From NCBI GenBank assembly GCA_015233675.1, contig JADFXH010000012.1, positions 1 through 57,711 of the forward strand: a DNA stretch of 57,711 nt. The letters are read 5' to 3'. The notes below the pieces were generated by a model. The model was not told the DNA's origin, did not search any database, and was given only the letters and a program-made list of their open reading frames with translations. The DNA comes from Candidatus Omnitrophota bacterium (GTDB lineage: Bacteria; Omnitrophota; Gorgyraeia; Zapsychrales; Fredricksoniimonadaceae). Position numbers and translations under genes: made by a program. This document shows, piece by piece, positions 17,898 to 27,399 of the stretch (its first letter is position 1; every line of letters begins with the position of its first letter).

Positions 17898-17971
17898 TGC
17901 CTTGTCGTCTAATGGTAGGACATGAGATTCTGGATCTCAGTATCATGGTTCGAGTCCATGCGAGGCAACCA
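17898..17971 (+). tRNA. tRNA-Gln(CTG), integration target
   Basis: Acceptor TGCCTTG/CGAGGCA, tgaga-ttCTGga-tctca, TTCGA, CCA. Confidence 0.93.
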
Positions 17972-19438
17972 ATTTGGACAACCCTTCATTTTTGCTAAGA
18001 AAATGTAGGGTTTTTTGTATGCGGCAGTTATAGTTACGTCAAAAAGGGTATAGTTCGAGGCTAATTTTTTTAGGACAATAGCCTTTTCTTCGTGATTTGC
18101 CCTAACATACTGTGGGTACAACAAGTTTGTTAGTTCGAGGGTTTTAACGCCGTCTTCGTAAAAATTAGGGTTAATCTTTTGAGCCTCCACAATTTGGCTG
18201 GCTAAGTCTAGTAAGAGCGTTTTATATTCCGACTCTTTTGATATAAAGACCTCCTCAGCAACTCCACCATCGTATTTGTCGTCATAAAGCCGGTTAAGGC
18301 GATCCTTTACCTTACTGTGCTGGGTTTGAAGCGATTTAAGACGGTTGTCGTGCGCTAGGGACAGGTTTTTACGGTCAAATTCAAGCCCCTCTTTAATCCA
18401 TGAGGCCATGTCTTCGGTAATGATTACCTGCTTAACGGGTTCTTCAAAGAGTTGGGCTAAACGATTCTCTGGGTAATATCCTTTTCCTTCGTGTCTGCCT
18501 TTTGAAAAAGTGCAGTGATAATAAGTATAACGATTATTATTTGGTTTACGCTTCTCTTCCCCCAAGACTTTGCATCCACAATCACCGCAAACCAGAAGAT
18601 TATTAAAGGCAAACTCTTTACGATTGGCTGAGGGATGAAACTTGCCAGTTAAAATTTGTTGGATACGATCAAATAGGGGTTTGGAAATTAAGGGTTCGTG
18701 ACTGCCTTGATAGAGCTTCCCGTGCCAATTAAAGATGCCATAATAAAATGAGTTGTTAAGGATATAGCTCAGGGTGCTTTTGCGGATAGGGTTTCCACGG
18801 GGAGACCGGAAACCATCTTTGTTTAGAATATCTGCGACCATTTGTATTGAATACGTGCCAGAAGCAAAAAGGCCAAAGGCTTTGCGGAGGTGTTCAAAAC
18901 GCTCAGTGTCGATTTCTAATCTTCGGGTTTCCCTATTGTTTTTATAGCCTAGGGGAGCTGTGGCAGGGTATAAACCTTGCTCAGCTTTCTCAACCATTCC
19001 CATTCGAGTTTTGCGAGAAATGTCATTAGACATTTTTTTGGCTACAGCTACTTCAATGTCAAGCATGAAGAGATCATCAGGAGTCGAATCTCTATTGTAA
19101 ATCTTGTTCGAGCGGGAAAAGTGAATGGTTTTATTATGATGCTGAACTAGGTCATAGATTTTGAGCTTATCAAAATCATTACGGGTCATCCGATCAAGAA
19201 TATCAAATATGATGTGCTCAACTTCGGGGTGGGCTTTGGCATAGTCGATCATTTGATTAAAGGCCACACGGTCTTTTTTACGATCCCAAGCGGATTCAGA
19301 AACCTTCCATTGTTTGACTATACTAAAGCCTTTGCGCTGGGCATATTCATGCCCCAGCTTTTCTTGAGCATCAAGGGAATATCCCTCCTTTTCTTGCTCT
19401 TTACTGGATACTCGGACATATAAAAGGGCAGTCTTCAT
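17909..19438 (-). CDS. Large serine recombinase; last codons run antisense through tRNA-Gln
   Basis: YVRVSSKEQ catalytic motif, DRMTRN, APLGY, zinc ribbon CGDCG...YYHC, coiled coil; ends WLPRMDSNHDTEIQNLMSYH. Confidence 0.93.
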   Translation of the reverse strand: MKTALLYVRVSSKEQEKEGYSLDAQEKLGHEYAQRKGFSIVKQWKVSESAWDRKKDRVAFNQMIDYAKAHPEVEHIIFDILDRMTRNDFDKLKIYDLVQHHNKTIHFSRSNKIYNRDSTPDDLFMLDIEVAVAKKMSNDISRKTRMGMVEKAEQGLYPATAPLGYKNNRETRRLEIDTERFEHLRKAFGLFASGTYSIQMVADILNKDGFRSPRGNPIRKSTLSYILNNSFYYGIFNWHGKLYQGSHEPLISKPLFDRIQQILTGKFHPSANRKEFAFNNLLVCGDCGCKVLGEEKRKPNNNRYTYYHCTFSKGRHEGKGYYPENRLAQLFEEPVKQVIITEDMASWIKEGLEFDRKNLSLAHDNRLKSLQTQHSKVKDRLNRLYDDKYDGGVAEEVFISKESEYKTLLLDLASQIVEAQKINPNFYEDGVKTLELTNLLYPQYVRANHEEKAIVLKKLASNYTLFDVTITAAYKKPYIFLAKMKGCPNWLPRMDSNHDTEIQNLMSYH

Positions 19439-19611
19439 TTATTTTTTAGCAACTTCTCTATGTGGTAAGTTTGTATTTTGTTTGGTTGCGATTTTCCATT
19501 CAACCATCGGTTGACGGTAGAGAAGGCAACATTAAGTTTTTCAGCAAGCTCTTCCTGGGAAATTTTATTTTCTAATCTGTAGGTTTCTAGGTGGTCAATT
19601 AGATTTGTCAT
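19435..19611 (-). CDS. XRE-family HTH protein (58 aa, not in the ORF track)
   Basis: MTNLIDHLETYRLENKISQEELAEKLNVAFSTVNRWLNGKSQP; ATGA overlap with the recombinase start. Confidence 0.85.
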   Translation of the reverse strand: MTNLIDHLETYRLENKISQEELAEKLNVAFSTVNRWLNGKSQPNKIQTYHIEKLLKNK

Positions 19612-19654
19612 GGTTTAATCCTTTCTTGCAGAATATAGCGTTTAGTTTTAACGG

Positions 19655-20743
19655 TCAAGTTCTATTTTTAATGAGTTCACTAACCCTCTGAGCGATCTGT
19701 TCTGTCTGTTCCTCCTGTCTTGGTCTATTAAGTAAATTTCTTATTATCTCACCCTGACGATATTCCTCTACATATCCATAGCTAGAGAAAGTTGTTGAAA
19801 CATGGTCATGACCTAAGTTTTGACTCCACGCTTTAAAGTCTTCGGGGGTCTTGCAGAGCGTTTCCCCCAGACGGACAAGCGTTTTGCGAAACAAATGGGG
19901 AGAGGAATATTCTAGCCCAGTCTTTTCAAAGGCTTCTTTAAATATTCCCCGCATTTGATTTGCCGATTGCCAGCACACAGGCTCTATCCCAACACTTGTA
20001 AAGCAGTTGTTTTTATCTAAGCCAATCTTTGTGCGGGGGAATAAGGGGTCATTGATTCCATAGAGTTTTTCTTTAATCAGATAGTTTGCCCAATCCTTGA
20101 CAATTACCTTGATGTCCTCACCAACGGGGAAGAAATAGGTATAAATCGTTTTGCTGAATTTGGTATTTACCTCACCGCCGATTTGTTCAACAAGCTCATC
20201 TTCAAGTTTAAGGTGCTTTAACTTTAGGGAGACTATTGCGCTGTCTCTTATACAGGTAAGAAAGGTAAAGGCCACGATTGCACGGTTACGGCGTTCTATG
20301 TCCGTATTGGCTGGCATGGAAAAGATAACTTGCCTGATTTGCTCTGGTGTCGGCACGGCTTCCCTTTTGGGGGTTTGAGCGATTCTTGTATCCTTTTCGG
20401 ATAGATTGAAGTATTCAATCTCACGAATATCAATGTGGCGGAAGCCTTTTTGGTAAGCCAGCCATTTAAAGAAGTCTTTTAAGTGGCGAAGGGTTGAAAA
20501 AAGCGTAGATTTGCTTAAAGGTTCATGGGACAAGACAGCTTTTGTTTCGGCCAGATGTTTCTTAAAGGCAATCGCCTTTTGTTTGTTAAAAGATTTAAAG
20601 TCTTGAAATTTGGTATAAATTTCATAGCGGGTCATGGCTTGGCGGATATTATCAATGGAGTTCTGGCTTTTCTGGTTGGCTTCTTTTTGCCATTCAAAAT
20701 AAATACGCTTAACTCGCTCGTTGGAGGGGTTGAATTTTGTCAT
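19655..20743 (-). CDS. Tyrosine recombinase
   Basis: Catalytic set R (CIRDSA), K (TKFSK), HxxR (PHLFRK), LGH, Y (SSYG). Confidence 0.9.
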   Translation of the reverse strand: MTKFNPSNERVKRIYFEWQKEANQKSQNSIDNIRQAMTRYEIYTKFQDFKSFNKQKAIAFKKHLAETKAVLSHEPLSKSTLFSTLRHLKDFFKWLAYQKGFRHIDIREIEYFNLSEKDTRIAQTPKREAVPTPEQIRQVIFSMPANTDIERRNRAIVAFTFLTCIRDSAIVSLKLKHLKLEDELVEQIGGEVNTKFSKTIYTYFFPVGEDIKVIVKDWANYLIKEKLYGINDPLFPRTKIGLDKNNCFTSVGIEPVCWQSANQMRGIFKEAFEKTGLEYSSPHLFRKTLVRLGETLCKTPEDFKAWSQNLGHDHVSTTFSSYGYVEEYRQGEIIRNLLNRPRQEEQTEQIAQRVSELIKNRT

Positions 20744-21228
20744 GTTCCTGTCACCTCATTCTTGTCAGTGTTATAGATAGGGGAATTAGACCCAGATAAG
20801 TGTTCATGGTGTATTTTTTGAACCACAAAAATTTTGTGCAATTCATCTAATTTTTTAGGGGAGGATATTTTGTTAAGAGGGGTATTACATTGAACACAAA
20901 GGCCAACTATCATAAGGCGTTTTTCATTTAGGAATTTAATATCAACCACGTTTTCCCAACTGGTGCGGGGTACTCTGCACTTCATACAAAAGAACTCATT
21001 TGGCTGGCAATGCCTTTTTCGGCCACCTTGCCGTTTATCCAGAAATTCTTTTAGATGGAATCCCATAACAAAGAATGGCTTGAGATCATCAATACGGGGC
21101 AATCCTTGCGTGTACCACTCATGAACGGTTCTCTTGTGGACGCCGAATAAGGTCACTATGTCCTGGGTGGAATAGGAAAGGGTCAATTTAATGTGGTGCG
21201 TGTTGTAATTTCTTTTTCTCTTCGGCAT
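20740..21228 (-). CDS. MerR/excisionase-like HTH plus C4 zinc ribbon protein
   Basis: YSTQDIVTLFGVHKRTVHEWYTQGLP; CMKC...CVQC; overlaps the tyrosine recombinase start. Confidence 0.7.
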   Translation of the reverse strand: MPKRKRNYNTHHIKLTLSYSTQDIVTLFGVHKRTVHEWYTQGLPRIDDLKPFFVMGFHLKEFLDKRQGGRKRHCQPNEFFCMKCRVPRTSWENVVDIKFLNEKRLMIVGLCVQCNTPLNKISSPKKLDELHKIFVVQKIHHEHLSGSNSPIYNTDKNEVTGT

Positions 21229-21229
21229 T

Positions 21230-21583
21230 TTATAGCTCGAATATCCTGTCGGTTGCTATGATTTTGTGGGCGAGTTTTTGTTCAGCCTTTTTAATCCAGT
21301 TGCCGTTTAAATCACGTCGGCGTTTCCTTTTAGTTCCTAGAGCCAGGATTTTGGGTAAATCAGCTTTAGGGAAGTCCAGTAGCCATAGAGGGTCATCGGT
21401 GCTCAGTTCGTGCTCTATTAGGCTTTTAGATTTAACTAGGGAGGCAAATTTTGATGACCATGTTGATAGTCTAAAATGAGTTTTACAAAGATCAGGAGGG
21501 GAGGGGTAGATTTCCCCATAGTCAATTAAACAAAAAAGGTCTCCAAGCGCATCCTTCCAAACCAAATGTTGAGGAATTTTCAT
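21230..21583 (-). CDS. Hypothetical protein
   Basis: 117 aa, tightly packed in the island operon. Confidence 0.6.
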   Translation of the reverse strand: MKIPQHLVWKDALGDLFCLIDYGEIYPSPPDLCKTHFRLSTWSSKFASLVKSKSLIEHELSTDDPLWLLDFPKADLPKILALGTKRKRRRDLNGNWIKKAEQKLAHKIIATDRIFEL

Positions 21584-21759
21584 GGGATGGTTTCCCCGTG
21601 ATCTTTTTGGTTGGATTTTTTCAACTCAAGCAGGTAGGAATAAAGGCCAATTACATTGTCTGCAATCTCTTGGGCATCCGCCAATGTTAATGGCTCGGGA
21701 CTGTACGGTTGCCAGAGCTTAATCGTCTTTTCAAGGTATTCTTTGGGGTATTTTGCCAT
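21580..21759 (-). CDS. Small hypothetical helical protein
   Basis: MAKYPKEYLEKTIKLWQPYSPEPLTLADAQEIADNV; 4-nt overlap with the next gene; start 21759 preferred. Confidence 0.65.
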   Translation of the reverse strand: MAKYPKEYLEKTIKLWQPYSPEPLTLADAQEIADNVIGLYSYLLELKKSNQKDHGETIP

Positions 21760-21911
21760 ATAATCACGTTGGTTGAAATACAACGCCTTTAACCTATATG
21801 GCGACAAGTCGCAGTTTTCCCAAAGAATTTTTAGTTTGAATTTAAAAATTGATAAAGATTTTTAGAGGGGGCGAAGGGTTTGTCACGTGACAAATCGATT
21901 TGTCACGCTTG

Positions 21912-22886
21912 TTAAGAGTTAAATTGGATTCGGCAGGTGTAAGCGCCTTCTGATTTGTAGGGGAAGAAAGCGTCTTCGTTAATTTGGAAGTATTTTTGTA
22001 GGGTCTCAGAAAGTCGTTGTTTCTTCTTTTTTATTGTATCGTTGGCTTGAGGGCTATCCCAAGAAATTTGGCCGCTTTCTTTGGACAGGTATTCTAACAG
22101 CGACCACTGAGCATTAGGGGAAAGAGTTCGCTTGTCTTCAAAACCCATTTCTTTGTAATGTGCCACATATTTCTCAGTGCCGATTTTGATTTCGACATTA
22201 TTGCTATCTTTAAACGTCAGGGTAATGTTTTCCCATTTTGTCGGCTTAAAAGACTGGGAGAATTTTGTTGGCGGATCATTGGAAAGGTTTTTCGTCTCAA
22301 GAAGATCGGTTCGTTGTGATCGTGTTTTATAGGCTATAGCTACTTCCTTTTTGAAGTCGGTAAACTCTTCGATATTAACAATTATTGCGATTGTATCGAG
22401 TTCGGGGACGATTTTGGCGTAAGAAATAACAAGCTCCCTCTCTAAAAAGTCCAGAGCGTCTTTACGGAAGTTCGCCATAATTCTTGAATTTCCTATAATA
22501 TGGCTACTCATCAGGGGGAATTTATCAATATTAAGCGAATCAATTTTTATTGTAACCTTTTCAGAGGGGTTCATTTGTAGCTGGTCGTTAATGTCGGTTA
22601 TCAAATTGTATATTTTTTCAAGGTTTAAAGGGCTTAAATCATTCAAACTGGTATCTCTCTGAAAAACATATCCGGCATACCAATTATCAAAAGAATCAAG
22701 TATTGTTAGATGGAAACGAAGAGGGTCTTGACGGACGCCCACTGATATAGCGTTGGGTCTGCTGGGGGGATGGTAGTCTCTGGGGGAGTGGTCTTTTAAA
22801 ACTTTTTCTGCTAGTTCCAGCCAATATATGATGCTCTCTATATGCTCAAGAGGGATTTGTTGCAATGTAGGCAAGTGTCTATCCAA
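21912..22886 (-). CDS. Hypothetical protein with a C-terminal wHTH-like DNA-binding region
   Basis: QWSLLEYLSKESGQISW...KKKKQRLSETLQKYF; the frame stays open upstream to 23084. Confidence 0.65.
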   Translation of the reverse strand: MDRHLPTLQQIPLEHIESIIYWLELAEKVLKDHSPRDYHPPSRPNAISVGVRQDPLRFHLTILDSFDNWYAGYVFQRDTSLNDLSPLNLEKIYNLITDINDQLQMNPSEKVTIKIDSLNIDKFPLMSSHIIGNSRIMANFRKDALDFLERELVISYAKIVPELDTIAIIVNIEEFTDFKKEVAIAYKTRSQRTDLLETKNLSNDPPTKFSQSFKPTKWENITLTFKDSNNVEIKIGTEKYVAHYKEMGFEDKRTLSPNAQWSLLEYLSKESGQISWDSPQANDTIKKKKQRLSETLQKYFQINEDAFFPYKSEGAYTCRIQFNS

Positions 22887-23224
22887 TAAAATACGAACTC
22901 CCTCAGATTTGCCGTGTAAAGCTGTGTCAAGTAGGCTAGGGGCGGGGATTTCAACTTGAAAAGCAAGAGCAAGAAGATCAGGCTCTGGCGGAGTGATCGG
23001 ATTGTTTTTATATTCTTGCCGTATTGCCTGAATTACCAGACTGAACTCATTCTTAGAATAGCTTTTCGTAGTCTTCTCCCTTCTTTATATTGATTTCCAT
23101 ATTATAGCAAAGTATAATGCCTCACAATAAGATTTAGTTACTGAACCGGAGCAAAAGGAGGGTAATAACCCAAGCCATAAGGCTTAAAACACATATATAG
23201 GAGCACCGCTTTTCCTATAAAAAA

Positions 23225-23309
23225 CCAACTTGTCAGAGGAAAAGACTGTGTCCCGACGCACTTCCGTGCGTTCGGGGCAGGCGGTCTTTCGCTTTTACTG
23301 ACAAGTTGG
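23225..23309 (+). other. 85-nt multi-stem hairpin in island A
   Basis: ccaacttgtcag/ctgacaagttgg perfect 12 bp, aaagac/gtcttt, tgtccc/ggggca, gacgcac-ttcc-gtgcgtt. Confidence 0.75.
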
Positions 23310-23330
23310 GCGATGAGACTTAAAAATGCT

Positions 23331-23375
23331 TGCCCCTTTTTTATTTTTTAGGGGAAGCCTAAATAAAAAGGGGCA
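23331..23375 (+). promoter_or_regulatory. Hairpin pairing over the ribosome-binding region of the 323-aa gene
   Basis: tgcccctttttt-attt / aaataaaaaggggca ends immediately before GTG 23376. Confidence 0.55.
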
Positions 23376-24347
23376 GTGATGAACAAACTTGTCTTTTTAA
23401 CCCTTTCAGTTATAACCTCTTTTCTTTTTTTGAACAAACCCCTCTTTGCTTCCGATCAAGAAATAGCCGACCAAATTCAAGGTTTAAGGGATGATTTACG
23501 GCAACAAGCAGTGGATGACGAACAAGAAAAACAAAGAGAGGAATCAAATCAACGCCTAAAAAAGGCTATTGATGATTGGGGAGCTAAGGAAAAAGCAAAA
23601 ATTGATTTAGAAATTCAAAAGGAAAGATCAATAGAAGACCAACAAGATCAAGAGGCTATAAAAAATGCTGAAATAAATGAAAAGGCTCAAACAGAAGGGT
23701 ATATAGCCGGAAAGAAAAAAGAATGTGAGGATCATGCTGTTAAGCTGGGCGGAACCCCAAAAGAAGCCGAAGATGATTGTAGGGATGTAGTGGCCTCCAT
23801 AAGAGGTTTAATGGAATCGAAATCCCCCAAAGAGATTGAAGCAGATGAAAAACAAAAAGAACTCGAGGCTTCACTGAGCGATCTCGATAATCAGTTGGCC
23901 AGTGGAAGAATTTCACAAAGTGAACATGACGGTAAAGAAAAAATGCTACTTGATGATAATAGGAAATGGCAACGGTCTGAAAGTGAATCGTTGACCACGG
24001 CTACCAATAAATTGAAAGAAGATATAGCAGACTCAAAAGCCAGGAGGTTAAATAATTCTTTAAAAAGTACCGACAAGTTGTTGTCCGTTGGAAAGGTTAC
24101 CCAAACTGAGCATGATGTACTAAAAGAAACATTGCTTGCCCCCAACATTCCAGAGGCTGATAGGGAAGCCGTATATGATTTGGTGGGAGCGGTAAATAGA
24201 TATTTGGAATTGGGATGGAAAGAAACGAAGGCGACACAAGCATTGAAGTCAAGAATACTAGACATTGAGGTATCCTCTGGAAAGATAACTAAAGGCCAAT
24301 TTGACGAAGGGAAGATGGAATTGCTCGGGGGTCACGTTACTAAATGA
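23376..24347 (+). CDS. Secreted coiled-coil protein with three SHOCT-like repeats
   Basis: Signal peptide ...PLFA; SGRISQSEHDGKEKMLL, VGKVTQTEHDVLKETLL, SGKITKGQFDEGKMELL. Confidence 0.7.
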   Translation: MMNKLVFLTLSVITSFLFLNKPLFASDQEIADQIQGLRDDLRQQAVDDEQEKQREESNQRLKKAIDDWGAKEKAKIDLEIQKERSIEDQQDQEAIKNAEINEKAQTEGYIAGKKKECEDHAVKLGGTPKEAEDDCRDVVASIRGLMESKSPKEIEADEKQKELEASLSDLDNQLASGRISQSEHDGKEKMLLDDNRKWQRSESESLTTATNKLKEDIADSKARRLNNSLKSTDKLLSVGKVTQTEHDVLKETLLAPNIPEADREAVYDLVGAVNRYLELGWKETKATQALKSRILDIEVSSGKITKGQFDEGKMELLGGHVTK

Positions 24348-24838
24348 GACTAATCTTTTTGATAATGAAAATATTCCGAGTGTGCAATAAATGCAAGTCT
24401 AGGTATTTGCTATTTCATTTAAAGTCGGATTGTAAATTTGCAATAGAGAATTTTCAAGCCCTTAGAGACTTGCTTGTCAAAGCCGCTATTGACGGTCATT
24501 TGGGGGAATCCAATAAAGCCATGTTTGATCTGAGGCTTTCTAAGATAGCTTTCCCATCAGAACAGTTAGATAGAAAAACTAAAGTTTTTGAAGGCACAAG
24601 ATTTTCTAGCGTTCCATTTTTAACAATTCTTTTAATGGTTACCATTGGAACAGCATTGGGTCAAGATAAAGGTGGCTTGATGCAAGGGATAGGAGTGTTC
24701 TTTATTTTTATATGGTTTGTGTTCCTGGGGCGTGGTGGTTTTAATGTGCTTTTTAAACAAATTACCCTTTATGATTTAATGAAGAGGTATAAGTTCAAGG
24801 CAAAAGAAGAGAATTTGAGTTATGAACGTCGCTTTTGA
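24344..24838 (+). CDS. Hypothetical membrane protein
   Basis: Two hydrophobic segments; 4-nt overlap with the upstream gene. Confidence 0.6.
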   Translation: MRLIFLIMKIFRVCNKCKSRYLLFHLKSDCKFAIENFQALRDLLVKAAIDGHLGESNKAMFDLRLSKIAFPSEQLDRKTKVFEGTRFSSVPFLTILLMVTIGTALGQDKGGLMQGIGVFFIFIWFVFLGRGGFNVLFKQITLYDLMKRYKFKAKEENLSYERRF

Positions 24839-25250
24839 ATTTATTTTGATTAACCTGGTGATCTTCGGATCACTTTTTCTGTTTTTACGTTGGGTATGTA
24901 CTCAATCAGCTACATGGAGAAACGTAACGGCTTTTGTTGTTGAGCTGGGATCGGCCTATTCTGCCAGCTTTGTTTTTGATATGCTGGTACAAGCAATCAC
25001 CGGCAGATTGCAGTTTGATAATGTTGTTGCGCCGGTTTGTACATGGTCTGGCATAGCCATTGCTTGTCATTTTTTTGCTAGCGGAACAGCGGTATCAAAA
25101 AAGCCCCTCTATCTTGCCTACCTCATTCTTGGGCTAATAGCTACAGCCGCATGTTTTATTCATACATATAATCTAATAGTCGGCGTGTCTCTATTGGTAA
25201 TCGCTGGGGTTATTGCGTTGATCCCAAGAAATAACAGTCCCCGAATATAA
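24822..25250 (+). CDS. Hypothetical membrane protein
   Basis: About five hydrophobic segments. Confidence 0.6.
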   Translation: MNVAFEFILINLVIFGSLFLFLRWVCTQSATWRNVTAFVVELGSAYSASFVFDMLVQAITGRLQFDNVVAPVCTWSGIAIACHFFASGTAVSKKPLYLAYLILGLIATAACFIHTYNLIVGVSLLVIAGVIALIPRNNSPRI

Positions 25251-25327
25251 ATTATGGATTGATTTTTGAGCGAAATCTGCTTAAACTTACGTTAAGCCGC
25301 TTGGATCAGTTCGTGAGACTCGGTGAA

Positions 25328-25363
25328 AAGCCAGTTGCGAAACTCGTCCAAATGAGGCAACCA
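25328..25363. repeat. attR of island A / left junction of island B
   Basis: GAGGCAACCA identical to the tRNA-Gln 3' end; 25328-25351 matches 27280-27303 at 23/24. Confidence 0.8.
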
Positions 25364-25585
25364 CGTTGGACAAGAGGCCCTTTTGGCGAATATGCTGAAG
25401 GGCTTTTTGTATGTGAGGCAAGGGGTTGCGTCATTAAGGATAACAGCCTTTTCATGGGCGGTTGCCGCAAGATACTGGGAATACAGTAAGTTCATCAGTT
25501 ATTTTACCGTCCATCCTGTCATCAAACAATTTATTGATCCTGTGGGCTGACATTGTCATGTTGTGTTTGAAGCGCGGCAAACACA
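25364..25585 (-). pseudogene. Remnant of a second large serine recombinase C-terminus
   Basis: Fragments LQTQHDNV, RINKLFDDRMDG, NLLYSQY..HEKAVIL, YKKPFSIFAK..CPTWLP align with LQTQHSKV, RLNRLYDDKYDG, NLLYPQY..EEKAIVL, YKKPYIFLAK..CPNWLP. Confidence 0.85.
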
Positions 25586-25668
25586 GAATTAACAAATTTG
25601 ATAGCAGGGAGTAAGAAGTATACTTAACCTAAATTTGGGCACAAATCATTTTTTTACGGAGGAATCCT

Positions 25669-26432
25669 ATGGATGTGACGACAAAGTGGAAAGGCCTCTC
25701 TATTCAAGAAATGCTGGGGAACTCGTGGCGGCTATATCTATAGGGGATCTTTTTTTACAGCCTCAAGCGACAGCCACGAATGGATCGTTCACGCAATCAA
25801 TCCTGATATTTGTTGTATCTACTATCGTGGGCGTAATTTTGACGATATCAGAGTTATATATGTGTTTACTGGTCAGATCGTTAGAACAAAATGACGGGAC
25901 TTCCTGGCAGGATCTGCTGGATACCTCATTAAATAAGATTGGACCGATGATTGGATCGTATATCCCTGTATTTTTCTTTTTCTTGTTGTTTTTTCTGCCC
26001 GGCATAGCTGTTGTTGTATTTCTTCATCCCGATGAATCTACGCAGAAAATTGTGACGACTGGCTGGATGTGGTGCGGAACGGCATATTTTAGTTATAAGT
26101 ACGCTCTTTTACCTACAGTCGTAGCTTACGAGAAACCGGTGTTCATGTCCTACCTAAAGAGAAATGCACAGCTAATCAAGGGATCGTTCTATGATTTTTT
26201 TGGTGCTTATCTGGCGCTGGTCCTGGTTTTGTCCCCTGTCTTTGCTATTTCATTCTTTTCGAGCAGCATCCCTCAGCCATATCAAATGATACTGTCAATA
26301 GTTTCCATTGTCCTCTGGGTTCCTTTAACGCCATTTTGTTTTCACTATTTATATTTTGTATATACCGAGTTGATCCAGAGGGAAAGCAGCCTTCGTGGCA
26401 TTGCACCAGGGAGCGTAGCGCCGACACAATAG
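25669..26432 (+). pseudogene. Multi-pass membrane protein, probably broken near the 5' end
   Basis: GGAGG + ATG 25669 reads MDVTTKWKGLSIQEMLGNSWRLYL then TAG at 25741; the hydrophobic body is in another frame (track ORF 25635..26432). Confidence 0.55.
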
Positions 26433-26708
26433 TAGTTCAAATGCGCTGGCATTGGTCCATACATTAGCCCGGCGAGAGAAAATGTTTATTTACAAATAAT
26501 CAGTTGTCCGTTTTGAAACACTGGTGGATATTATAACTAACATACCTGCCACGCCTCTTGGCTTCGGTCAATGCGCATTTTGGGCAGGTTTTATTGATCT
26601 ACTCCCCGTTTGATGCCTTGTCAAAGGTTTGGTCGGGGTTGTTTTTTTGATTGCACAAGATGAGGGTTTGATATATCCTTTAAGTAAATAGACATTAGGA
26701 GGCTCACT

Positions 26709-26933
26709 ATGCGCAATGAAATTTCTATATCCAATATTTTGAAGCTGGATGTCTCCGAAAGAATCCAGCTGGTGGAAGATGTTTGGGATAGCGTTGCTGC
26801 TGTCCCCGAAGCTATTCCCTTGACAGACAAACAGACAAAAGAGCTGGATCAACGCTTGGCTGCCTACCACAGCAATCCATCAGCCGGATCTCCCTGGAAA
26901 GAAGTCAAACAGAGAATATTGTCCAGAAAATGA
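26709..26933 (+). CDS. Addiction module antitoxin (TIGR02574-like)
   Basis: LKLDVSERIQLVEDVWDSV...ELDQRLAAY...GSPWKEVKQRI; AGGAGG RBS. Confidence 0.88.
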   Translation: MRNEISISNILKLDVSERIQLVEDVWDSVAAVPEAIPLTDKQTKELDQRLAAYHSNPSAGSPWKEVKQRILSRK

Positions 26934-27229
26934 AATACGATCTCATTATTCGACCGGAAGCTGAGCAGGATATGCAAGGCGCTTTTGGCTGGTACGAAGA
27001 TCGTGTTTCAGGGCTTGGCCGAGAGTTTCTGCGTTGTGTGGACGCATCTATAGCTCAAATTAACCGTTCTCCCAAAACACATCCAGTCATATATCAGGAT
27101 ATTCGCAGGACATTGACCCGTCGTTTTCCTTTTGGGGTTTTCTATATTGTAGTTGGTCAAAAGATTATTGTGCTTGCTGTCCTTCATGCACGCAGGGATC
27201 CAAGCATGTGGAAAAGAAGGAAGAATTAA
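26930..27229 (+). CDS. ParE/RelE-family toxin
   Basis: IIRPEAEQDM..A..WYE....GLG.EF, RRFPFGVFY, VLAVLHARRDP; ATGA overlap with the antitoxin. Confidence 0.9.
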   Translation: MKYDLIIRPEAEQDMQGAFGWYEDRVSGLGREFLRCVDASIAQINRSPKTHPVIYQDIRRTLTRRFPFGVFYIVVGQKIIVLAVLHARRDPSMWKRRKN

Positions 27230-27279
27230 CAAGCAGTAAGAAGCTCTGTGGACATGAACTCTTGGGACTCAGGCGAGTC

Positions 27280-27314
27280 AAGCCAGTTGCAAAACTCGTC
27301 CAACAGAGCCAACT
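27280..27314. repeat. attR-like end of island B
   Basis: aagccagttgcaaaactcgtccaa plus gagccaact; the minus strand reads LDEFCNWLDSPESQEFMSTELLTAC*. Confidence 0.7.
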
Positions 27315-27330
27315 TTAACAGTTTTATTGG

Positions 27331-27363
27331 GGCTGTCCGTTTTAAAAATGGACAGCCTTTTTT
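27331..27363 (+). terminator. Intrinsic terminator, probably the displaced tRNA-Gln terminator
   Basis: ggctgtcc-gttttaaaaat-ggacagcc-tttttt. Confidence 0.75.
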
Positions 27364-27399
27364 CTTGTTTTTAACCCAAGAGGTCTTTACAATTAATTC

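Follow-up and report, generated by a model that had tools for sequence, protein, structure and literature searches.

A 7.4-kb element of a Candidatus Omnitrophota bacterium (GCA_015233675.1) appears to have been inserted into the end of a tRNA-Gln(CTG) gene by its own large serine recombinase (LSR), whose gene contains the element's attachment site (attP); we consider this account, which as a whole best explains the locus, very probably correct. The LSR gene spans attP, and integration replaces a conserved C-terminal tail of about 20-25 residues with residues read antisense from the tRNA. The insertion point is most likely C71-A72 of that tRNA. All coordinates refer to the window, the whole 57.7-kb stretch of contig JADFXH010000012.1 that was analysed, in which the features of immediate concern are:

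17898..17971, plus strand: tRNA-Gln(CTG), intact (ARAGORN)
17962..17971, no strand: attL core GAGGCAACCA (exact repeat)
17909..19438, minus strand: LSR, 509 aa (Pfam Resolvase, Recombinase and Zn_ribbon_recom; translation)
17976..18016, plus strand: hairpin and U-run, terminator-like for the tRNA, antisense within LSR codons YKKPYIFLAKMKG (RNA folding)
25292..25353, minus strand: tail-coding arm T_A, the P arm of attP, encoding HLDEFRNWLFTESHELIQAA and a stop (sequence, translation)
25354..25363, no strand: second core copy, the junction between the far arm of this element (island A) and the integrase arm of a second island (island B) (exact repeat)

Translation and ARAGORN agree at the first junction, where the original prediction had the recombinase read through the core and finish inside the tRNA gene. 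The LSR reads ...CPNWLP across the core and ends ...KMKGCPNWLPRMDSNHDTEIQNLMSYH before its stop; the last 63 nt of its open reading frame (ORF) overlap tRNA-Gln(CTG) in antisense, and its final 17 residues (RMDSNHDTEIQNLMSYH, 17912-17961) are an antisense reading of the tRNA. At the second core, the exact repeat and the minus-strand translation bear out the different tail that had been expected there, as the strand reads ...SCPTWLP, then the T_A peptide, to a stop at 25292-25294. T_A conforms to the motif of the family, x[LV]D[ED]F[RC]NW[LC], and a third, related tail (LLDEFCNWL...), also anticipated, ends ...LLDEFCNWLDSPESQEFMSTELLTAC and a stop at 27226-27305, at the end of island B. The core is found exactly twice in the window, in the same orientation, within stretches of 68 and 67 nt that are 70-72% alike. 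A chance repeat is ruled out, because the 10-mer is unique in the window apart from this pair and its flanks are homologous.

In the mechanism we propose, some ten codons before WLP would constitute the integrase-side arm of attP, while the 20-25 codons after it would double as the other attP arm and as the natural C-terminal tail, in which the family motif is followed by an acidic, hydrophobic stretch. In the circular form the LSR gene is whole and tail-bearing; here, excision would fuse ...WLP to the T_A peptide. Integration moves the tail to the far end of the element, after which the LSR reading frame continues, antisense, through part of the tRNA until it happens to meet a stop. The circle-encoded enzyme, with its tail, may be the complete integrase with full activity, and the integrated gene may yield a tail-less isoform of altered activity or directionality, the expression of which could be further lowered by convergent tRNA transcription and by the terminator-like hairpin in the 3' coding region. 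A second, decayed copy stands in tandem with the first, and relatives form arrays whose single-gene cassettes share the tail arm.

The junction enzyme is a large serine recombinase by its domains, its invariant residues and its fold, the last taken from a homologue model. Pfam assigns the window protein a Resolvase domain (PF00239, E 2e-19), a Recombinase domain (PF07508, 1e-16) and a zinc ribbon (PF13408, 26.2 bits, cut-off 25.3). All of 30 homologues keep R9 and S11, and zinc-ribbon residues C284, C287, C289 and C309 are likewise invariant in the homologue alignment. AlphaFold2 modelled the window LSR with a mean predicted local distance difference test (pLDDT) score of 70, residues 474-509 falling below 50, which is too poor for comparison with a tail-bearing model. 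Natural tail-bearing forms of the LSR occur at loci L005 and L102 and as protein P0006, and the L102 form was modelled with a mean pLDDT of 84.7. That model has long paired helices at 336-383 and 389-414, and a helix over WLPMLDEFSNWLIY (pLDDT 73-80) directly after the last helix of the zinc-ribbon domain; its final ten residues score below 50. The best Foldseek matches, which are those of the L102 homologue and not of the window protein, are 9dxd/9y66 (SPbeta), 9iu2 (Bxb1), 9rah (phiC31) and 4kis (LI), with E from 1e-12 to 6e-19. Family searches recognised no recombination directionality factor (RDF) among the small conserved proteins of the element.

GTTG, on the LSR strand, is the sole block common to all three sites, and the reconstructed attP is a dyad, GTCCAAAT-TGGTTGCCTC-ATTTGGAC (arms around N10), centred on TG. 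Together these place the probable crossover dinucleotide, CA on the tRNA strand and TG on the LSR strand, at 17966-17967 (tRNA C71-A72). The dyad and the 8-10 bp of identity between sites are in keeping with the short att sites of LSRs, imperfectly symmetric about a 2-bp crossover. Read as their reverse complement, tRNA positions 68-76 give the W-L-P codons, TGG TTG CCT, and the encoded CCA is thus the opposite strand of the Trp codon. Comparison with native ends in the same genus indicates positions 1-72 of the tRNA to be chromosomal, and discriminator A73 and the CCA (17968-17971) to be supplied by the element: a search with the tRNA itself recovered same-genus tRNA-Gln ends (GGCAATTT or GGCAACTTT; ...GCGAGGCAATTT or ...GGCAACTTTTAAAC) that carry no encoded CCA and match the sequence to the right of the third site (AACTTTAACAG). 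An empty site was sought through synteny of the downstream 570-aa gene in 40 relatives, where identity reached 43% at most and the neighbourhood held no tRNA. Across the genus, encoded CCA varies among tRNA-Gln genes, being present in some and absent in others. Three same-genus genomes (G006:C3, G012:C1, G020:C194) also hold partial copies of the tRNA-Gln 3' half (23-50 nt) 1-4.6 kb from the full gene, which suggests other islands, with longer duplications, at the same tRNA.

The arrangement is characteristic of a very large family, with 2,923 matches at E <= 1e-10 among the candidates scored, including an LSR 92% identical to that of the window. The C-termini of the best 120 matches are of three kinds: most read WLP[RG]xDSN... 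or similar, an antisense reading of the tRNA T-arm; many stop right after WLPx; and a few continue as WLPxLD[ED]FxNWL.... Among 39 loci from named metagenome-assembled genomes (MAGs), drawn from Planctomycetota including Brocadia, Omnitrophota, Zixibacteria, Elusimicrobia and others, the LSR ORF ends antisense in tRNA-Gln or tRNA-Asn in about 25. The codons after Trp track the target tRNA, being TTGCCT or CTGCCC for Gln and CTCCCC for Asn. Searches with the exact core found the far ends of two relatives, and motif searches those of six more. The tail DNA pattern had no match in IMG/VR, so these elements are not catalogued as viruses there. We also observed that the family lies almost solely at tRNA-Gln and tRNA-Asn, both of which have a U1-A72 first pair here (loci L007-L045), and that the conserved W-L-P codons correspond to CCA, discriminator and tRNA positions 72-68. 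On one contig (L150: 315-1817, 10721-12268) two distant LSRs lie about 10 kb apart, one 26% identical to the window's and bearing the same type of tail (WLPVMDEFRNWCLIKIDIQQFEELPIA and a stop), the other 37% identical and running into tRNA-Asn; since an LSR as divergent as the former is tail-bearing, the tail is common well beyond the close family.

Relatives also provide evidence of a circular form and of the exchange at empty as against occupied sites. The ends of contig L005 (6,649 nt) overlap directly by 30 nt (k-1 for k=31), the sequence signature of circular assembly, which closes within the backbone gene p75, far from the att site. Its LSR reads ...KLPQVDEFCNWLLHQ..., in full ...KLPQVDEFCNWLLHQSTDFQPEFEVTLLNSS and a stop, which is an LDEF-type tail, and a tail-bearing LSR on a circle is the form predicted for the excised element. 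The claim that an att site inside the LSR ORF makes integration into the tRNA-Gln 3' end a swap of tails holds both here and across the family. Compared with the window (19655-21228 for the first two), the L005 tyrosine recombinase is 92%, p162 80%, and the LSR only 57% identical; the LSR/att module and the backbone therefore appear to have been exchanged between elements. The L005 LSR targets a tRNA-Asn-type end. In L001 and L002, contigs from sister samples that carry the same LSR (P0006), the sequences are identical downstream to ...AAAACTGCCCC (...AATAAAACTGCCCC), after which L001 runs into the body of tRNA-Gln and L002 into TATTGGACGAGTTTCGCAACTGG, the tail arm of another element. This empty/occupied pair puts the exchange within CTGCCCC, the equivalent of the window core.

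The tail itself appears to encode a selected peptide, and to be more than a binding site, judging from its pattern of sequence conservation. A metagenome scan for the DNA pattern TGGYTNCCNNNNNTNGACGANNTTNNNAACTGG returned at least 120 stretches, comprising 116 distinct sites and 112 after dereplication; the figures from it hold among the matches listed. The tail consensus is WLPx[LV]D[ED]F[RC]NW[LC]x[TS]EEA[EK]K[LI]x[KQ]EL[AV]x[IV]x followed by a stop, with the first stop at codons 27-28 in 39 of the 116 sites and at codons 24-31 in 76. Among the dereplicated sites, 12 or more open codons follow the fixed pattern in 91%, against 51% and 38% in control frames, and a stop falls 13-20 codons past the pattern in 65%, against 12% and 8% in the other two frames. 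The ratio of nonsynonymous to synonymous polymorphism (pN/pS) is 0.42 in 34 moderately diverged pairs. Over 14 independent sites, acidic residues make up 17.8% and basic residues 4.3% of the in-frame variable part, whereas in the other five frames the shares are 0-7.7% and 12-17.5%, respectively; the Leu after NW is coded by CTT, CTA, TTG or TTA, and Arg by CGC or AGA. Most metagenomic tail sites have no LSR in front, being far-end junctions with a stop codon often just upstream, and production of the peptide would therefore require that an LSR gene become joined to the arm; the fact that the peptide is preserved implies that such joining recurs. A protein search with the C-terminal 55 residues of P0006 gave only three matches.

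Several considerations weigh against this account. GAC and AAC in the tail motif never occur as their synonymous T-ending codons, and TGGAC, common with the tRNA T-stem, recurs at one and the same distance from the centre in all three arms, those of the tRNA and the tail and, in inverted form, that of the integrase; part of the conservation therefore lies at the DNA level, as for a recombinase-binding site. Taken further, the LDEFRNW-coding stretch might be only a recombinase-binding P arm that happens to reach a chance stop, in which case integration would change nothing of note in the protein. The first 14 sites are in keeping with this, their mean open length past the motif being 14.9 codons and not clearly above chance, yet the larger set contradicts it, in that the frame is open far more often than in controls, the stop position is sharply peaked, acid-rich composition is confined to the tail frame, and pN/pS is low. 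Further, conservation (TEEAEKLxKELxxI) reaches 50-80 nt from the centre, past the usual LSR half-site of about 25 bp, so that a tail devoid of peptide function seems unlikely. Counted from the P/A position, the window tails have 20 and 26 residues, fewer than the metagenomic consensus, to which they also conform less closely than is typical. The circle comes from a relative whose LSR shares little more than half its residues with this copy, and two identical copies in tandem could likewise yield an apparently circular assembly. LSRs are intrinsically unidirectional and have no obvious need for a tail switch, and it is the structure of the exchange that the sequences support, a functional switch between the isoforms being something we infer.

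Two further explanations concern the element as a whole. The tyrosine recombinase (19655-20743) could integrate it into the tRNA in the manner of classical tRNA islands, with the LSR merely abutting the junction; until at least 2014 only tyrosine integrases had been reported at tRNA genes (PMC4383910), and this enzyme is conserved in most relatives. Against this, the junction of LSR and tRNA is kept at seven loci (L010-L012, L027, L029, L031, L045) where tblastn finds nothing that matches the tyrosine recombinase, and in two of them (L012, L027) the ORFs of at least 130 aa that were tested within the 6-7 kb upstream of the LSR hold no Phage_integrase domain. Members in which no tyrosine recombinase is detectable thus point to the LSR as the integrase for this site. 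Differences in the target tRNA are mirrored in the terminal codons of the LSR, 1.7-6 kb with variable cargo separate the tyrosine recombinase from the junction, and the tRNA duplication spans only 8-10 bp, all of which makes it an unlikely driver and leaves this explanation, on the sequences compared, with very little credence. Alternatively, the element may be a fixed, dead insertion that has left the repeat and the tails as relics. Decay is clear in island B, and the genome, a 65%-complete MAG, offers one copy only; however, island A retains an intact LSR and a full set of intact backbone ORFs, the two cores match exactly, a closely similar LSR exists elsewhere, and relatives show circular assembly and empty/occupied polymorphism, which render a dead insertion improbable. 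An element integrated by its own LSR is retained as the preferred account.

The locus runs from tRNA-Gln through the core, island A (7,392 bp, intact), the second core, island B (25364-27309, about 1.95 kb, decayed) and a degenerate core to the native tRNA trailer. Island B retains the last 45 or so LSR codons, a toxin-antitoxin pair and a tail arm, as follows:

25364..25507, minus strand: remnant 3' end of a second LSR gene (about 45 codons, ...YKKPFSIFAKRASCPTWLP), island B (direct-repeat families D1 and D2)
25635..27229, plus strand: remnant cargo of island B, with a 265-aa ORF, an antitoxin (26709-26933) and a ParE/RelE-type toxin (26930-27229) (Pfam ParE_toxin, Unstab_antitox)
27226..27305, minus strand: tail-coding arm T_B, whose peptide and stop are given above (sequence, translation)
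27306..27313, no strand: third, degenerate core GAGCCAAC (plus strand), attR of island B (one mismatch to GAGGCAAC)
27314..27366, plus strand: displaced native tRNA-Gln trailer TTTAACAG..., with its own hairpin and T-run (resembles native trailers, e.g. GGCAACTTTTAAACC in L191)

The stretch at 25364-25507 is 47% identical, with one stop, to residues 433-496 of the window LSR in an own-genome search. As it is the remnant of an LSR 3' end, the second core is a hybrid of two islands, and the locus consists of two related elements in tandem. The layout is that of the Islander type, with an island between an intact tRNA and a displaced 3' copy, although the repeat is only 10 nt, with TGGAC also in common; islands of tyrosine integrases typically have much longer repeats. 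The toxin-antitoxin pair of decayed island B is intact, its genes overlapping by 4 nt, and the toxin stop overlaps the end of T_B.

On the LSR strand, island A comprises p324, p75, p117, p162, the tyrosine recombinase, a helix-turn-helix (HTH) protein and the LSR, and is completed by three convergent cargo ORFs:

19435..19611, minus strand: Cro/C1-type HTH protein, 58 aa, whose stop overlaps the LSR start (Pfam HTH_3, PHROGs, tblastn)
19655..20743, minus strand: tyrosine recombinase, 362 aa, element-internal (Pfam Phage_integrase)
20740..22886, minus strand: backbone genes p162 (weak HTH), p117, p75 and p324 (ORFs; tblastn synteny)
23376..25250, plus strand: three cargo ORFs (323, 164 and 142 aa), convergent with the backbone (ORFs)

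The order p75, p162, tyrosine recombinase, HTH protein, (cargo), LSR is widely conserved among relatives. By tblastn, the synteny of p162, p117, p75 and p324 is kept in nine loci (L001, L004, L005, L007, L008, L014, L017, L020, L024), and the HTH protein is 57-86% identical across loci. Pfam, PHROGs and further family searches gave no family match for p162, p117, p75 or p324 beyond the weak HTH signal in p162, and Pfam and PHROGs gave none for the three cargo ORFs.

The hairpin at 17976-18016 folds at -13.2 kcal/mol (z -2.4), and equivalent hairpins have z of -4.3 in the island B remnant, -8.0 in L007 and -5.2 at the end of an L001 cassette. A simple consensus terminator scan did not flag the hairpin behind the tRNA. 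The conserved C-terminal LSR codons ([YF][RK]KPF...[KE]G) form such an opposite-strand hairpin and U-run directly behind the tRNA in the window (17976-18016 and 25370-25410, plus strand) and in L007 (11395-11455, minus strand). From these predicted structures, the hairpin is likely to be a tRNA terminator supplied by the element, such that LSR codons, att arm and terminator appear to overlap.

Arrays of cassettes that lack an LSR (0.6-3 kb, mostly of one gene) were observed at L001:7064-8944, L002:5047-6990, L085, L088, L097, L111, L119, L163, L164 and L165. One and the same tail arm (WLPxLDEFRNWL...) opens every cassette, a tRNA-Asn or tRNA-Gln stands at the end of the arrays, and 34 of 36 cassettes have their largest ORF co-oriented with the tRNA. 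Translations inspected by eye suggest a diverse cargo, with apparent methyltransferases, a zeta-toxin-like P-loop protein, membrane proteins, a radical-SAM-like enzyme, a helicase and a nucleotidyltransferase. By analogy, these look like integron-style arrays built by a serine recombinase. Unlike integrons, which are defined by IntI, attI and folded attC, the arrays in L001, L085, L088, L097, L119 and L163 are bounded by LSR-type tail arms on tRNA-Asn or tRNA-Gln, and the resemblance is one of analogy only.

The junction enzyme works like certain systems already described, yet is a member of neither of the two that it most recalls. In phage Mx8 (IntP/IntX), the coding sequence of int contains attP, and on integration the gene acquires a different 3' end by recombination; its changed product is reported to be still active, with modified properties (PMC6070905, PMC4383910); the comparison drawn in the original prediction is thus correct. 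In both cases attP is within the integrase gene and integration changes the end of the protein, but Mx8 Int is a tyrosine recombinase, with other chemistry and site architecture, whereas the piece exchanged here is a short conserved tail, predicted to form a helix, and its replacement consists of tRNA-antisense residues. The SSV-type 'suicidal' integrases of archaeal viruses and plasmids likewise carry the recombination site inside the integrase ORF and target a tRNA, at which integration partitions the gene (PMC7253208). They too are tyrosine recombinases, and their gene is split into two inactive halves, whereas here the catalytic and DNA-binding body stays intact and the tail alone is exchanged. 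As a serine recombinase, the junction enzyme therefore belongs to neither family.

It has closer kin in the LSRs of phages and integrative conjugative elements (SPbeta SprA, Bxb1, phiC31, Listeria A118/LI), with which it shares the order of domains (catalytic, recombinase, then a zinc ribbon with an inserted coiled coil) and probably short, imperfect-dyad att sites with few identical bases, and among which are the best structural matches of homologue L102. It differs from them in that attP lies within the integrase ORF, so that the product alters the enzyme's own C-terminus; in its target, the CCA end of a tRNA; in the lack of a recognisable RDF; and in the presence of a tyrosine recombinase aboard the element. 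Fusion of an RDF to the C-terminus of phiC31 integrase, near the base of the zinc ribbon and coiled coil, can set the direction of recombination (PMC5737554; 10.1101/2025.05.02.651858), and the extreme C-terminus of that integrase contributes to the RDF interface (PMC5737554). In those fusions, as here, a polypeptide is appended to the LSR C-terminus; they are artificial and carry a full RDF protein, whereas here a natural peptide of about 25 residues is added or removed by the reaction itself. As such fusions can set direction, it is, by analogy, mechanistically plausible that a C-terminal tail should act on directionality. According to the Islander paper of 2014, no serine integrase was then known to target a tRNA gene (PMC4383910), and in the literature searched, coverage of which was incomplete, we found no description of an LSR with attP in its own ORF or of an LSR family that targets the tRNA CCA end. 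The family is apparently both large and undescribed.

What the tail does is a matter for graded conjecture. Tentatively, we would first propose that it is needed for efficient integration or synapsis, a role that is possible but far from assured. That it modulates direction is a lesser prospect; that it has no effect is unlikely; and some other role, such as stability or partner binding, is more doubtful still. A bolder proposal, which we put forward as conjecture and consider rather unlikely to hold in full, is that the LSR senses its own state: each event would rewrite its C-terminus, and the acidic, amphipathic tail of about 25 residues, lying near the base of the zinc ribbon and coiled coil, would act in cis on directionality or activity. 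The tail-bearing circle enzyme would then integrate, and the tail-less integrated enzyme would be locked, or competent for excision with a small partner. In the same proposal, the tail-arm cassettes would make the family an equivalent of integrons that is run by a serine recombinase and has tRNA-Asn and tRNA-Gln as its anchors.

Serine integrases are prized for genome engineering as simple and one-directional enzymes, and how their direction is set is an active structural question. Here, a natural family alters the enzyme's own C-terminus as a product of the reaction, and provides three defined proteins (tail-bearing, tail-less and tRNA-tailed) that can be compared on four short DNA sites. If the tail does sense state, then it would represent a built-in alternative or complement to an RDF. 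One short DNA stretch is assigned overlapping roles, as protein codons, predicted recombinase-binding site, tRNA 3' end including CCA, and likely tRNA terminator. More broadly, the family shows the targeting of tRNA genes by serine integrases, and does so in poorly studied phyla, namely the Planctomycetota, including anammox bacteria, Omnitrophota, Zixibacteria and Elusimicrobia.

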